In this document: piece after piece, positions 1 to 61,816 of the stretch
Layout: each line of letters opens with the position of its first letter
How positions within the stretch are numbered: position 1 is the stretch's first letter
NCBI GenBank assembly: GCA_964016885.1
Contig: OZ024743.1
Span: forward strand, 191,270,001 to 191,334,000
Length of the DNA stretch: 64,000 nucleotides
Origin: Eledone cirrhosa
Taxonomy: Eukaryota
Direction: 5' to 3'
Notes under the pieces: generated by a model
What the model was told of the DNA's origin: nothing
Databases searched by the model: none
What the model saw: only the letters and a program-made list of their open reading frames with translations
Made by a program: the position numbers and the translations under genes

Positions 1-1491
1 TACTAAGAGGTGGAAGCGGCCTGATAAACCTCAGAACCAACTTCTTCGGGACATGCAGTCACCTTAGAGCCGGGACCTTTCTCAAGATATATGGACAGTA
101 GCAACACAAGATGATGTGAACTCCCCTCAAGCTATAGGGACTTCTACAGAACATGAAAACACCTCTCGGCCAGACCTCCCTCAAGCTATATGGGCAATAA
201 CAACACCCTAGGTTGTGAACTCCCCTCAAGCCATAGGGAACAACCCAGGCGGAGCAAACACCATGATAGCCTAGAGATAGAATCGGACAGAAGCCATAAT
301 AATTTGGCCAACATCTATAACACAAACACCTTTAATTTACTAGATTTCTGATTTTCAAGTTCCAATCTTAAATCTTGATTTCTCTTTATTAATTTGTTAT
401 TTGTAATCTGCCCTCTTCACCTTATATTTATTTTTAAGTTGAGATTGATTATAACACAAACACATCTAGTTTGAATATTTCATCTTAACATCTTGTCTCA
501 TACCAATCTATCCAACATATTCTGACCTTGAGATTGGTTATAGCACACACACACACTTTATCCTACATTACTTCTCACTTCTCCATATTCATTTTCATTA
601 CTTTTTCACCAATTTTTCATTTATTCTTTATTCTTTATTCTCTATTTATTTATTTATTTTCAAATTATACAAATTATATTAATTATTTTATTATATTATT
701 TATTTATTTTCTGTTTTCTTCATTCATTGCCTTATATTTCTTCATATACATGGAACCCACCACCACCACCACCACTACGATGGTGGCAGGAGGGATGAAG
801 AAAAAACACAAACTGGATACTTCTAAATTGTTAGCAGCAGCAAGATATAAGTTGACCACTACACCAACAACACTACCAAAATAGTGGTAGAGGTCAAATG
901 TACTGAACAATAGCAGGCAAAAATACTACAGGGAGCCTCACCCCAGAAAGAATTCTATAGACTTCTGACTGAGGAATGCTCTCAGAACTGACCAATGGGA
1001 AGTTTGACACTTTTTTTGTTATTTTGTTCCTTTAACACCTTGTCCCTTCTACCATTTTATCAATTTTTAAGCTAACTCCAACAATAACAACACTTAGAAT
1101 GAGGAATGTTCTAATAACTGACCAATGAGAGGAGAAGAGGACCTTTGACACTGAAATTCGTTTGTTTGAATTCATATGACTCCAGTTCCTCAGTGAATTA
1201 ACAACCCAACAAAGAACTCGGCATATCAGAGTATTAACAATATTATACACCTAAACAACATATGTACTTGTCTATACCATACTAATTCAAACTGCCTGAA
1301 GAGGTCACAGTCAAAGATGGCTGTCACTGAAATATATATAGCAGTAATAAACGAAGCTAAATTTTAATCATTTTACTTTTATTTAACTTGATTTGCACTA
1401 CTCCGGAGTAACCAAACCAACCTGCGCACTTCGTCGAGTGCTCCAGCCTGCATACTGAGGTGTTGGTATACAACCAACATAAACTCAAAAT
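1..1491 (+). mobile_element. Probable PLE 3' region/pLTR remnant (family A), carries an HHR, ends at (TC)n(TA)n
   Basis: HHR at 1291-1345 with a related copy at 60274-60342; internal subrepeats (ctcccctcaagctatagg; gaggaatg...actgaccaatg twice); no recognisable ORF. Confidence 0.55.
1291..1345 (+). ncRNA. Minimal type I hammerhead ribozyme
   Basis: Stem I actgc/gcagt; core CUGAAGA; stem II ggtcacagtca/tggctgtcact; GAAA; palindromic helix III atatatat; UA cleavage site. Confidence 0.85.
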
Positions 1492-3047
1492 CTCTCTCTC
1501 TCTCTCTCTATATATATATATATATATATATATATATATATATATGCACATTATCCTGTGCTAGGGGGTGACCTTATATTAATTGATATAGAAAACGTGT
1601 ACCGAAACTATTTTTCCCAATATGATTGCAACATTACCATAGTTATGTGAAGACGATGTTTTAAACATTGTCTTTCAGTAATTACAAAGGATGATCGCAA
1701 GACATCCTTTTCTTATCGCTTTATCCGCCGGAAATATACAGGCACAGAAACACAAAAACACGCTTTCGTATACATATATGTATGCATGTACCTAATGTGT
1801 TATCGATTTTACTGATAACACAAACATTTTTTTTTTTTACTCACTTCATTTTCTGTCTAAAAAAGGAGAAATATTATCTCATGAACCCAAATCATATGTC
1901 TAAAAAATACCGAAAAAAAATGAGCTATGTATTGTGAAATTAACAACTAACCATATACGACTTATATTTGAAATATATCAACTCTTTCATAATGGAAAAT
2001 TCTATTGTTATCGCATAACAACAAAATAATATACGGTATCTGTATGATAGTGTTCTTTTCTTGTTTGCTATTTAACTTTACCTTTTGAATGAATCATTTC
2101 GAACGAATATTTTTATTCATATTTAAGCTATGAAGTATCAATTCTAGTCACGAAATATCAGGATCTATGACAAGAAATCTCTGATAAACATGGATTTTTC
2201 CACCATAATGCGATCCAGAAATTTATTACAGAAAGGATATGCCATTTTTTGATGCGTTTGCCTTTCTTAAAAGTAAACCAATACTGAAAGATGTAAGTGT
2301 GCAACAGCATGTGTGATAAATTCTACACTTTTTCTGGCCTTTCATCATTTTCTATATTCGATATCGATTTTCTTCGAAAACATTACACCACAATACTTCA
2401 ACGAATTACACACACACATAATTCTTTGTTGTCCAGCGACCTCGACGTTGCTGAGCTTCGTCATATTAACTGATTATGGGCACAGGAAGTATGTAAAATT
2501 CAATAGGGGACCCACAACCACAACCACAACCATGAAAGTTGCACGCATGCTGTGCTAGTGGCGCAGATGGTCGTCGCTTCTATTGCCGAGGTATAAGCTT
2601 GTCTCTGCTTACAGTAACCAGAATGTAAAGAAATCAGGGGGGAGCTGTTTGGAAACAGAGCACCAGCTTTGTCAGTGTTTTGCAGCATCATTCCGGCCAG
2701 ACAATGAAATACTGCACATGTGCACACACATACACACATACTAACGCACACACCCACATAACTTCGATGTCAATCCGAACCGATTTGCTATATGCTATGT
2801 AGTAAAACCGAAACTTGAAATTCATGATTGCGAAACCAAATATTTAATCACGTGACTACGGTTATATGTATATATACATATATATATATATATATATATA
2901 TATATATATATATATATATATATATAAATTATATATATATCCATAACATACATACTCACACACACACACACACACACACACACACACACACACACACACA
3001 TATATATATATATATATATATATATATATATATATATATATATATAT

Positions 3048-3268
3048 ATAACAGATTAAAGTCTAAGCAAAGAATCGCTGCTTTCACCCTTAACGGGATC
3101 TCCTGAACCTCTTCAGATCCCGTTAAGGGTGAAAGCAGCGATTCTTTGCTTAAACTTTAATCTGTTATCTTAGTAAATATTTGCTCTACGGTTCTTATAT
3201 ATTTGATATATATTTATCCTTATCGAGCCCTCTTTGGAATTTAGTCTTCAAATTTATTATTATTACTA
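3048..3268 (+). mobile_element. Fold-back mini-element (family B) flanked by (TA)n
   Basis: Inverted arms 3048-3101/3115-3168 plus a 100-nt tail; homologous to 7821-8420, 59040-59200 and 60975-61190. Confidence 0.85.
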
Positions 3269-3503
3269 TATATATATATATATATATTTATATATATGTG
3301 TGTGTGTGTGTGTGCGTGTGTGTGTGTGTGTGTGTGTGTGTGTGTGTGTGTGTGTGTGTGTGTGTGTGTGTGTGTGTGTGTGTGTGTATATACAACCAAC
3401 ATAAACTCAAAATATATATATATATATATATATAGAGAGAGAGAGAGAGAGAGAGGGAGAGAGAGAGCGAGAGAGAGAGAAATAGATAGAAAACATAGAT
3501 ATA

Positions 3504-3571
3504 TCATCTGATGAGGAAACTGGAATATCTGTTAGTTGAATTGTCTAATTTCGTGAAACCTTGTGTAATGG
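3504..3571 (+). ncRNA. Type I hammerhead ribozyme (family C, element about 3500-3751)
   Basis: Stem I tcat/atgg; CUGAUGA; stem II ggaaactgga...tctaatttcgt; GAAA; short helix III; GUA. The 3' tail matches the reverse complement of 50950-51035. Confidence 0.65.
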
Positions 3572-3999
3572 AATAATCATATTGTGCTCCGGCCGTTTCG
3601 ACAGATAGATACAAACAGTTCGGATCTAGCTGTCGGAACCGCGAGGATCAGCCGCCGGGGTCCTCACTCTTTTCATATTACCTATTCTACTAACCTATGT
3701 ATCGAGTACTCCGGTGCGTTATGGTCCACCTGGTATCTTACCACACATTTGCATATATATATATATATGTATATATATATATATATGTATATATATATAT
3801 ATGTATATATATATATATATATGTATATATACACACACATCAATATCTATATATATTTATATTTATATATATATATATACATATACACACATATTTATAT
3901 ATATATATACATATACATACATACACATACACACATGTATATATATATATATATATATATATATATATATATATATATATATATATATATATATATATA

Positions 4000-60436: not shown

Positions 60437-60918
60437 TATATATGCACGTATCGGTTTACCGAACATCCATTATAATGCTCGGCTTGTTTGTAAACAAACA
60501 AACAGCCTGATTTACGCCGTACAGTGTTTAGGCAACCACGTCACCTTTTTGTTCAACACTGACACAGGAACGATGTACTAGTTTCAAGCTTATTAGCTAT
60601 CGTCAGCATCGTATACCTTCCTGCCAGATGGTTGAACGTCTGAAAGTATATACTTTCCTTATGCATATTAACGGCTGAGCAGCCTAATTTGCATATCGAG
60701 TGAGTTTAGTCGGACAGGGGCACCGAAAACGATAAATGGAATAGAATGAAACGAAATTTCATTTCTCACTCTTAGTACGGCAGTTACTTAAATGTAAGTA
60801 TGTATGTATGTATACGTACATACATATATGTATACAGACGCACAGTAGTATGTGTATATATACACACATGCACACATATATATATATGCACGTATCGGTT
60901 TAACGAACATCCATTATA
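60437..60918 (-). mobile_element. Terminally redundant 444-nt unit with an HHR (retrozyme-like)
   Basis: 38-bp direct repeats 60437-60474/60881-60918; microsatellite flanks. Confidence 0.7.
60570..60612 (-). ncRNA. Very compact canonical hammerhead
   Basis: acgatg-CUGACGA-tagct aata agctt-GAAA-ctag-UA-catcgt. Confidence 0.9.
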
Positions 60919-60974
60919 TATATATATATATATATATATATATATATATATATATATATATATATATATATATA

Positions 60975-61190
60975 GTAATAATAATAAATTTGAAGACTAA
61001 AATCCAAAGAGGGCTCGGTAAGGATAAATATATATCAAATATAGAAGAACCGTAGAGCAAATATTTATTCAAATAACAAATTAAAGTTTAAGCAAAGAAT
61101 CGCTGCTTTCACCCTTAACTGGATCTTCAGAAGATCCCGTTAAGGGTGAAAGCAGCGATTCTTTTCTTAAACTTTAAACTGTTATTTTTA
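60975..61190 (-). mobile_element. Family B fold-back mini-element
   Basis: Hairpin centred on gatcttc-a-gaagatc (61129) plus the family B tail. Confidence 0.85.
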
Positions 61191-61240
61191 TATATATATA
61201 TATATATATATATATATATATATATATATATATATATATA

Positions 61241-61430
61241 GAAGAGCTTCTACAGGACTAGAACTGTTTCATTCGTGAGAAATCATCAGAAAGCTTCCTG
61301 GTGATTTCTCACGAATGAAACAGTTCTAGTCCTGTAGAAGCTCTTCTGTATTAAAACTGTTATACTCTTCTATGTATTGAGTACCTTACTTACTGTGTTT
61401 ACCTCCAATTCAACCCGGAATAACTTATAT
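61241..61430. mobile_element. Fold-back of two back-to-back hammerheads plus tail
   Basis: Hairpin 61241-61346; HHR on minus 61245-61295 (CUGAUGA) and on plus 61292-61342 (CUGGUGA); third diverged copy 61455-61505 (-). Confidence 0.85.
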
Positions 61431-61816
61431 ATATAGAGAGAAAATATAGAAAAAGGCTTCTACAGGACTAGAACTGTTTCATTCGGGAGTAATCACCAAG
61501 AAGCCGACTGTCCAAGTAATATGTTGGTATTTATATATTTTCTGGTAGGAGAGGGTGGGAATTGGGATGGATGGAGGTCATTGGTTGATGGGTTTAAAGA
61601 AGAGGGAATTCTTTAAAAACTATTTAAATACATATCATAAAAAATATATATACATGTGTGTATATATGTGTATAAGTGTGTATATGTATGTGTACACATT
61701 GTGTGTGTGTACATATATATATATATATATGTATATGTGTATCCGTGTGTATGTGTATGTATGTGTATGTGTGTATATATATATATATATATATATATAT
61801 ATATATATATATATAT

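Follow-up and report, generated by a model that had tools for sequence, protein, structure and literature searches.

Hammerhead ribozymes of (TA)n-associated Penelope-like elements in a 64-kb window of the Eledone cirrhosa genome

We have analysed 64,000 nt of the genome of Eledone cirrhosa (contig OZ024743.1, positions 191,270,001 to 191,334,000; hereafter the window), in which type I hammerhead ribozyme (HHR) motifs stand close to (TA)n runs. We read these motifs as the 3' pseudo-long terminal repeat (pLTR) hammerheads of Penelope-like elements (PLEs), mostly 5'-truncated copies of ten coding families, nine of Hydra type and one of Neptune type, with the addition of three families of retrozymes that lack an open reading frame (ORF) and likely borrow the same proteins. 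Taken with the model of insertion and dimer cleavage given below, this reading has in our estimate a probability of about 0.88. Of the 25 motifs in the window, 19 are 3' ends of 5'-truncated copies of the ten coding families, three belong to retrozymes and three are unassigned.

Hammerhead motifs in the window and in the genome

The strict descriptor for type I HHRs consisted of a CUGANGA core, a helix I of at least 4 bp, a helix II of at least 3 bp, GAAA and UH; a second scan relaxed the core. Both were revised for families with a helix II mismatch or a long helix III, and the counts given are those of the revised scan. The strict scan found 10 HHRs in the window, compared to a mean of 0.075 (maximum 1) in 40 shuffles that kept dinucleotides in 300-nt blocks. 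The relaxed scan found 17, compared to a mean of 0.475 (maximum 3); one of these, at 45335, scores at noise level. An earlier note on this sequence had claimed about 20 type I HHRs in at least 12 dissimilar contexts and had named shuffled sequence and covariation as the checks. Both strands were inspected with genome relatives as a guide, and 22 of its 23 sites are intact, variant or decayed type I HHRs, their positions right within about 10 nt and several of them on the minus strand. The site at 32005, with a broken core and without a relative among the genome loci compared, is unconfirmed. Three HHRs were added (34460, 51776 and 58788, all on the minus strand), for a total of 25 motifs in about 16 families.

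The core order CUGANGA...GAAA...UH, in the helix order of type I, is found in the window together with many decayed or variant copies. Eight sites of the earlier note pass the strict scan (1296, 42756, 50301, 53552, 55720, 60286, 60606 and 61289), and the HHR at 20464 has a canonical core. Variant cores are U3-A8 (7542), U4A (8351 and 59133), U4C (34999, 35668, 50027 and 53328), C3U (34473), G5A (59366), A6G (61298) and C3U with A6G (61499). Helix III has decayed at 3508, and the HHR at 36494 lost the 5' strand of helix I to an inversion junction. Covariation was assessed in an alignment of 17 hand-picked family representatives, whose relatedness can inflate the signal: 13 of 14 pairs change on both sides, including 3 of the 4 in the palindrome of helix III, while none of 500 shuffles scored as high and slid controls were low. 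At the third helix II position (alignment columns 18/47) families A, B and D keep a C opposite C or U amid covarying pairs, which may represent a tertiary or protein contact.

To put the window in context, 74 evenly placed 10-kb stretches of the 3.0-Gb assembly, small contigs left out, were scanned in the same way. The strict scan found 71 motifs and the relaxed scan 94; four shuffled sets gave 0-2 and 1-6, respectively. The strict density of 96 per Mb (bootstrap 62-134) corresponds to about 290,000 motifs per genome (190,000-400,000). The density of the window lies inside the sampled range (P about 0.18 strict and about 0.05 relaxed); relative to the rest of the genome it is ordinary. Independent floors were provided by genome-wide counts of exact patterns, with reversed patterns as controls: 48,547 for the ATATATAT class (control 138), 14,577 for ACAATTGT (14), 22,264 for ATGCGCAT (0), 40,389 for ACTAGT (10), 22,783 for family G (0), 16,894 for the AGAACT family (0) and 1,452 for the family of the 59366 motif (0). 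These seven classes sum to at least 166,906 copies; a further 27,663 matches come from the 3' half of family K (control 0). It is likely that the arrangement of an HHR next to TA occurs about 300,000 times in this one genome.

Carriers of the hammerheads

Open frames in the window connect the motifs to coding elements. The ORF pieces at 5724-7095 match proteins with a reverse transcriptase (RT) and a GIY-YIG endonuclease (EN), and those at 55923-56520 and 35067-35282 match a second protein type. Each type is represented in the genome by many full-length copies, and 44 of 60 Neptune-type and 44 of 63 Hydra-type matches listed have no stop. Two HHRs of the same family, 3.3-4.7 kb apart, enclose an ORF in families A, B, C1, D, E and G and in the Neptune family, and tandem HHR-ORF-HHR units are present at seven loci (L210, L203, L209, L260, L169, L167 and L123). 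In family K an intact 758-aa frame directly follows one HHR, and a second HHR lies further downstream, while families C2 and C3 are tied to EN pieces only. The distance of the HHR behind the ORF is constant per family. These units have the make-up of canonical EN+ PLEs, in which a single ORF combines RT and C-terminal GIY-YIG and full or partial tandems form pLTRs. Several automatic HHR-EN pairings, with distances not repeated within a family, were dropped as neighbouring insertions.

Clade motifs were taken from Craig et al. (2021; PMC8557442). The Hydra motifs, RW[KR], DKT, CxCx5C, CxxC and CxH around E/N in the absence of CCHH, are found in families A, C1, D, E, F, G and K and, for the part of it recovered, in B; family D reads LRWT at the RWK-type motif. 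The Neptune motifs GxKF, DKG, CX4CxxC and a C-terminal EN with internal cysteines occur in locus L110 and at 5758-7095 of the window. An initial assignment of the main clade as Nematis-like was dropped in favour of Hydra on the basis of these definitions. Hydra-clade elements prefer (TA)n and carry a canonical HHR; here, 70 of 74 sampled motifs have TA within 300 nt downstream. Elements of the clade are generally shorter than 3 kb, whereas the units found here measure 3259-4258 nt. None of three intact Hydra-type ORFs of 713-821 aa (L252, L259 and L169) passes any Pfam family, and such elements thus escape domain-based annotation; among 14 ORFs of the window, Pfam gave only mariner helix-turn-helix (HTH) domains above noise. 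Of the 12 loci (L264-L275) of the family with the AGAACT/AGGACT helix III, 4 contain a divergent GIY-YIG remnant some 500-550 nt upstream. These 4 represent three insertions, and the family is possibly a third PLE clade.

Three sets of motifs had been described as physically linked to RT or EN remnants. Two of the links stand, the HHR at 7542 with 5758-7095 and that at 35668 with the EN tail at 35067-35282. The EN at 55923-56520 next to the HHR at 55720, one of the automatic pairings dropped, lies beyond the TA run of that element and shares only about 70% identity with family B loci; it is therefore a neighbouring insertion rather than part of the same element. For the HHR at 1296, the linked RT/EN piece lies immediately left of the window. 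A PLE and retrozyme community tied to (TA)n, as the earlier note proposed, agrees with these results, but its description as mostly non-autonomous is wrong at the family level, since 19 of the motifs derive from families with coding units or EN remnants elsewhere in the genome. The copies present in the window are dead, 5'-truncated remains of coding families, with only three ORF-less retrozymes among them.

The elements of the window are as follows.

1..1508, plus strand: 3' untranslated region (UTR) and pLTR of family A (Hydra-type PLE); HHR core 1296 to cleavage site 1340, helix III ATATATAT; the long 3' end abuts (TA)n at 1509, and the element extends leftward beyond the window, where an RT/EN piece and an inverted copy lie.
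3498..3575, plus: decayed HHR, core 3508, site 3567; one of the three motifs not assigned to a family.
5773..7771, plus: 5'-truncated Neptune-type PLE between two (TA)n runs; HHR 7542-7572, U3-A8 core, helix III ACCGGT; the coding remnant at 5758-7095 comprises a frameshifted RT thumb, a CX4CxxC linker and GIY-YIG.
7908..8416, plus: family G (Hydra-type) 3' end, 93% identical to locus L169; HHR 8351-8391, U4A core, 17-nt helix III.
20399..20476, minus: family D-like (Hydra-type) HHR, core 20464, site 20411, helix III ATGCGCAT.
34336..34516, both strands: family C3 (Hydra-type) tail-out inverted pair; HHR 34460 (minus) with decayed GAAA and 34473 (plus) with C3U; helix III ACAATTGT.
34755..35913, both: family C2 (Hydra-type) inverted insertion; EN C-terminus 35067-35282 (plus); HHRs 34999 (minus) and 35668 (plus) with U4C core, helix II insert of about 95 nt and helix III ACAATTGT.
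36315..36585, both: family B-like inverted stub between (TA)n runs; HHR 36494-36542 (plus), wobble palindrome ATATGTAT, 5' strand of helix I lost at the inversion junction.
42602..43132, minus: ORF-less retrozyme monomer between (TA)n runs; unit about 491-496 nt, 40-nt terminal repeat, HHR 42756-42686; family helix III ACCGCGGT, decayed to ACCGTGGT in this copy.
49940..50388, both: family C1 (Hydra-type) inverted pair; HHRs 50027 (minus) and 50301 (plus); family core U4C, helix III ACAATTGT.
51697..51788, minus: HHR absent from the earlier note; core 51776, site 51709, long helix III; the second motif not assigned to a family.
53133..53417, plus: family E-like (Hydra-type) 3' end, 76% identical to locus L160; HHR 53328-53383.
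53454..55906, both: family B (Hydra-type) tail-out inverted insertion; HHR 53552 (minus) at the short end and 55720 (plus) at the long end; helix III ATATATAT.
55923..56520, plus: separate 5'-truncated Hydra-type EN fragment with CxCx5C linker and YIG; it begins within the TA run that follows family B, and no HHR was found behind it.
58658..58800, minus: HHR absent from the earlier note; core 58788, site 58670, long helix II; relatives elsewhere have ACAATTGT or ACGGCCGT; the third motif not assigned to a family.
59050..59198, plus: second family G stub, HHR 59133-59173.
59216..59576, plus: retrozyme-like unit, tandem period about 440 nt elsewhere; predicted rod fold (z = -22.5) with HHR 59366-59399 at its tip.
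60135..60391, plus: family A relative, HHR 60286-60330, helix III ATATATAT.
60408..60875, minus: non-LTR retrozyme monomer without ORF, tandem period 422-430 nt elsewhere; HHR 60606-60576, helix III ACTAGT.
61241..61504, both: family K (Hydra-type) stubs; inverted pair 61289 (minus)/61298 (plus) and decayed 61499 (minus); 16-nt helix III.

Element ends and (TA)n

The association with (TA)n that had been noted in the window extends throughout the genome sample. A run of (TA)5 or longer lies within 250 nt downstream of 24 of the 25 window motifs, compared to 25% of random positions. Of the sampled motifs, 74 score at least 9 (the 20 that score lower were not counted); TA is present within 300 nt downstream of 70 of these and upstream of 20, compared to 23% of random positions. 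The HHR is located 15-200 nt from the 3' end of the element, and this end abuts the (TA)n.

The 3' ends of the copies fall at either of two fixed points, separated by about 100 nt, and most of the short copies come with an inverted partner. Among 30 family A loci, some of which are the two arms of one insertion, 14 end 52-60 nt and 15 end 148-167 nt past the cleavage site; the ends abut TA or another simple repeat, and 1 of the 30 loci runs into a next ORF without TA. At the 5' boundary the same loci have an inverted copy (19), TA (3) or other sequence (4), or extend beyond the locus (4). In the random sample, 15 of 18 same-family neighbours are arranged tail-out, 2 tail-in and 1 in tandem, and the tail-out pairs often combine one short and one long end. 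Such 5'-truncated inverted copies with an optional 3' tail are characteristic of EN+ PLEs, and by analogy the two 3' ends and tail-out pairs match the two RT start sites and the tail of the anole PLE (PMC11167929). Ten of the 30 5' boundaries of family A (L001-L030) fall 122-125 nt upstream of the core, at an internal ATAT that is a hotspot of truncation or self-insertion.

Retrozymes without ORFs

Three families recur as ORF-less units of about 420-502 nt with one HHR each. That of 60606 forms long head-to-tail arrays, that of 42756 forms two-unit tandems in 2 of 10 loci, and that of 59366 has three same-strand pairs 437-444 nt apart among 100 matches listed. Head-to-tail units of this kind, a few hundred nt long, fit non-LTR retrozymes as described in PMC7229834 and bioRxiv 2026.07.22.740005. 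About 30 units of a 466-nt retrozyme with ACTAGT form an array at G000:C1:5738326-5752444 (in part within L262), and locus L158 has a 312-nt tandem family with ACGCGT.

Helix III palindromes

Helix III was compared among 87 motifs from random stretches, in 35 clusters of which some are splits of one family. Among the 21 clusters with a 6- or 8-nt helix III, 16 have perfect palindromes, and 19 when G-U is allowed. The inner pairs, which are not imposed by the scanner, are Watson-Crick in 31 of 37 cases and G-U in 4 more, where chance would give 0.28 per pair; with each distinct sequence counted once, 18 of 24 are Watson-Crick. The predicted monomer helix III is unstable (+2.4 to +6.0 kcal/mol), whereas the homoduplex is stable (-2.2 to -14.1) and most duplexes between classes have positive energy. 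A short self-complementary helix III, unstable within one molecule, is the hallmark of the minimal dimeric PLE HHR. The palindrome is conserved with compensatory changes, and these predictions support a helix III kept self-complementary in the dimer register, a pairing proposed by Cervera and de la Pena (PMC4209133) and summarised in PMC6765202. Families G and K have a helix III of 16-17 nt instead of the short palindrome.

The proposal that each family has a palindrome of its own did not survive, since one palindrome serves families with proteins 28-49% identical; helix III could at most encode a few classes. ATATATAT is common to families A and B (47-49% protein identity) and to further clusters. 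At least six clusters share ACAATTGT; for three of these, C1, C2 and C3, the associated proteins are 28-44% identical. ACTAGT is common to at least two clusters. A single clade of ACAATTGT families is rejected by the approximately unbiased (AU) test (p-AU 0.003), with the C2 and C3 rows only about 20% filled, and a single clade of ATATATAT families is not (p-AU 0.12). In the protein tree A, B and D group together with support; A and B have ATATATAT, D has ATGCGCAT, and relatives of B have ATATGTAT wobble forms.

Core variants

Several families have a fixed or prevalent change in the catalytic core. U3-A8 is fixed in the young Neptune family and is also found in one Hydra-type family; the same swap is described for a relative of Cercyon in Schistosoma (PMC4209133). 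U4C dominates families C1 and C2; in a viroid, this change reportedly leaves sufficient activity in vivo (PMC3088659). U4A is present in 95 of the first 100 listed copies of family G, and 3 of the 5 exceptions overlap their partner at an inversion junction.

Proposed mechanism

As published PLE work suggests, the GIY-YIG endonuclease would nick (TA)n, and RT would start at either of two internal RNA sites to give the short end or the tailed long end. Synthesis would usually stop early or fold back and leave one or two HHR-bearing stubs per event; fresh insertions would reuse old TA runs, so that stubs cluster. Helix III is predicted to be too weak to close within one molecule, and the two HHRs of a tandem transcript would therefore pair through the palindrome and, probably with the help of protein, cut out a unit-length RNA. 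Selection on dimer pairing would keep the palindrome while allowing slow drift through G-U intermediates, and palindromes would thus mark clades and not families. Tail-out partners, being on opposite strands, cannot form a dimer in cis, and it is likely that solo and inverted stubs without a same-strand partner are inert.

Alternative explanations

Several observations weigh against this reading. Cleavage of these HHRs is a prediction from sequence. Of the 15 motifs folded singly, only 3 did better than shuffles (z below -3), and the complete three-helix hammerhead is the minimum-energy fold of none of them, long-helix-III families included; the idea that those families fold as monomers found no support in single-strand folding. 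Three abundant families have fixed core changes (U4A, U4C) that are expected to lower activity. Of 9 Xenopus retrozyme dimers put to the test, 8 showed no cleavage (bioRxiv 2026.07.22.740005). The hammerhead of the anole PLE needed protein to cut, and insertion in vitro did not require it (PMC11167929). Cleavage in published tests has thus far been weak, dependent on protein or absent. A comparison of the three retrozymes with 12 PLE loci found no sequence link. The names Hydra and Neptune rest on motifs and not on a tree with reference proteins, as the trees here contain genome copies and database hits only. The TA association could reflect target preference or TA added during insertion. The Xenopus and anole results imply that the motif may be kept in part as a protein-binding fold. 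Taken further, the fold would be a platform for binding or folding of the RT-EN protein, or a weak, regulated ribozyme, with self-cleavage unneeded for transposition. That insertion persists in anole HHR mutants and that no RNA-seq reads end at the site (PMC11167929) speaks for such a role, as do the near-fixation of U4A in family G, a family with intact ORFs, and the prevalence of U4C in C1 and C2. We nevertheless think it unlikely: the core outside position 4, along with the UH site and the C3-G8 pair (swapped to U3-A8 in at least two lineages), is conserved in families whose helices are unrelated, as catalysis demands, and U4C is reported to be compatible with activity in the viroid.

The remaining alternatives have less in their favour. 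Chance matches in AT-rich, low-complexity DNA might be suspected, since Rfam gives no hammerhead at gathering score in the window and none at E<=10 in 59050-60700, its E-value list holding microsatellite and miRNA artefacts and no hammerhead among 150 of 262 rows; but the excess over shuffles, the tens of thousands of genome matches compared to 0-138 in controls, and the covariation leave this explanation almost no room. Non-autonomous retrozymes or hairpins resembling miniature inverted-repeat transposable elements (MITEs), with (TA)n growing from tails rather than serving as target, would account for window inserts that are mostly 100-500 nt long and often perfect inverted repeats, and for three true ORF-less tandem families, including an ACTAGT class of 40,389 copies. 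This holds for three motifs and is refuted for the 19 that map to the ten coding families. In the inverted repeats the outer 3' ends are fixed while the inner junctions vary, a PLE signature. Tandem junctions without TA (L013) and truncated solos such as 5773-7771 with TA on the 5' side too speak against growth of TA from tails; as a general account it is highly improbable. It is also very unlikely that the palindrome is an identity code by which RNAs dimerise only with their own kind. In its favour, duplex energies in register show a strong diagonal, whole palindromes are exchanged between related families (ATATATAT to ATGCGCAT, ACAATTGT to ACGGCCGT), and the palindromes of the three window retrozymes are absent from the ten coding window families. 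Any two different palindromes pair poorly, however, and orthogonality thus comes for free; the sharing of ATATATAT, ACAATTGT and ACTAGT among several families, with ACAATTGT not a single clade, argues against a code, as do the non-palindromic helix III (AGAACT/AGGACT) of the 16,894-copy family and the near-palindrome that most published Hydra families share (PMC8557442 file S2), and cis pairing in a tandem needs no code. A more speculative extension, to which we give little credence, is that, at a density of one HHR per 10 kb, HHRs with the same palindrome in unrelated transcripts (host introns, full-length PLE RNAs and retrozyme circles) meet in trans. Helix III would then sort the roughly 300,000 copies into about a dozen orthogonal classes, and a crowded class would cut its own members and host pre-mRNAs in a dose-dependent manner, driving palindrome switching through G-U and dampened cores (U4A, U4C and U3-A8) in the most successful families. 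If true, this would be a frequency-dependent RNA self-recognition system among retroelements.

Other sequences in the window

Mariner-derived elements at 4000-4867 and 15192-16087 are 86% identical and have terminal inverted repeats of about 100 nt and HTH remnants; their transposase is internally deleted, and the copy at 4000-4867 begins directly after a TA run. A repeat family of about 190 bp (13379-13574, 18388-18568, 19301-19501, 19774-19957, 28302-28521, 31354-31562 and 40050-40461) has at least eight copies in both orientations, is found in other loci too and gave no hammerhead or tRNA call; a tRNA search of the window found none. The open frames at 62581-63177 (minus) and 63182-63661 have no Pfam match and are possibly the remnant of a DNA transposon; by its features the former lies near unnamed eukaryotic clusters, mostly arthropod where known. 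Inverted family G tail stubs without a hammerhead core lie between TA runs at 3051-3266, 7821-7915 and 60975-61188. Other TA-flanked repeats, without a detected hammerhead, are located at 10499-11025, 33767-34111, 42003-42180, 48006-48237, 49595-49711 and 50801-50917; one is a 232-nt hairpin, and they may be further PLE tails or ribozyme-free passengers. A 230-bp direct repeat (26475-26704 and 27498-27727) is 99.6% identical over copies 1023 nt apart. Positions 1000-1500 were compared with two contig sets, and the family is present in both, nothing more; a sequencing-run search with the family A sequence gave no RNA dataset among those listed.

Comparison with known systems

The main clade resembles the Hydra clade of EN+ PLEs (Craig et al. 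2021) in its RWK-type, DKT, CxCx5C, CxxC and CxH motifs, its lack of CCHH, its 3' type I HHR and its (TA)n preference; the helix III of family F (ACCA-C-TGGT) is one base off that of Hydra-1_oBim (ACCA-A-TGGT; PMC8557442 file S2). The published clade comprises 27 families from few aquatic invertebrates with near-palindromes of 9-10 nt, whereas a single genome here has at least nine families in the window and others besides, with units of 3.3-4.3 kb, 3' UTRs of 0.2-1.5 kb, and perfect 8-nt palindromes or a helix III of 16-17 nt; copies that bear an HHR number more than 100,000. GxKF, DKG, a CX2-5CxxC linker, cysteines inside a C-terminal GIY-YIG and an HHR in the pLTR are shared with Neptune; unlike that clade, two families examined here combine a U3-A8 core with an ACCGGT palindrome. 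As in metazoan minimal type I HHRs (PMC4209133; PMC6765202), a short palindromic helix III with a predicted need for dimers occurs in many families of one genome, and copies are mostly solo or in close opposite-strand pairs (PMC4209133). The ORF-less tandems of 420-500 nt resemble non-LTR retrozymes (PMC7229834; Li, Clavereau and Pollet 2026) in having one type I HHR per unit, dispersed monomers, co-occurrence with PLEs and one strongly self-paired family, but no homology to a PLE pLTR was found for them among the 12 loci tried. Two fixed 3' ends per family, AT-rich targets and a longer end that adds a tail running towards the next ORF recall the PAc/Poseidon mechanism (Frangieh et al. 2024, PMC11167929), in which the tail measures 30-40 bp and not about 90-100 nt; here, in a further difference, the HHR lies upstream of both ends and outside the ORF.

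Earlier publications already describe a palindromic helix III, HHRs located in pseudo-LTRs, inverted copies, a preference for (TA)n and a pair of alternative 3' ends. The aspects that look new are the scale, the radiation of the Hydra clade, the allelic series seen in helix III and in the core, and the fixation of U4A in the core of about 22,800 copies. Published HHR counts stand at about 9,000 in Xenopus, 4,000 in the coelacanth, 3,300 in Schistosoma and 120,000 in the 28-Gb axolotl genome. Compared to these, the floor of exact matches and the sampled estimate in 3.0 Gb, about 100 per Mb, form the densest hammerhead load found, although descriptors differ and the comparison is rough. Some 150,000 such variants across many genomes, with dimer cleavage, are reportedly known from work by Lunse et al. 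in 2017. In the literature visible to us, which excludes subscription papers and bioRxiv supplements, searches on hammerhead heterodimers or a palindrome code, on hammerheads in cephalopods, on Hydra PLE copy numbers, on TA targeting and on U4 variants turned up no report of such a code or of U4A, family-fixed or otherwise.

With no Rfam match and no Pfam family passed by the intact Hydra-type ORFs, repeat annotation would miss or mislabel this load. The Hydra clade passes from a handful of consensus sequences to a within-genome radiation with intact copies. These families provide a natural allelic series on a protein tree, with helix III of 6, 8, 9, 10 and 16-17 nt, palindromes that are perfect, wobble or broken, and four core variants; the role of the PLE hammerhead, whether in cis dimers, trans dimers or protein-assisted monomers, thus becomes directly testable.

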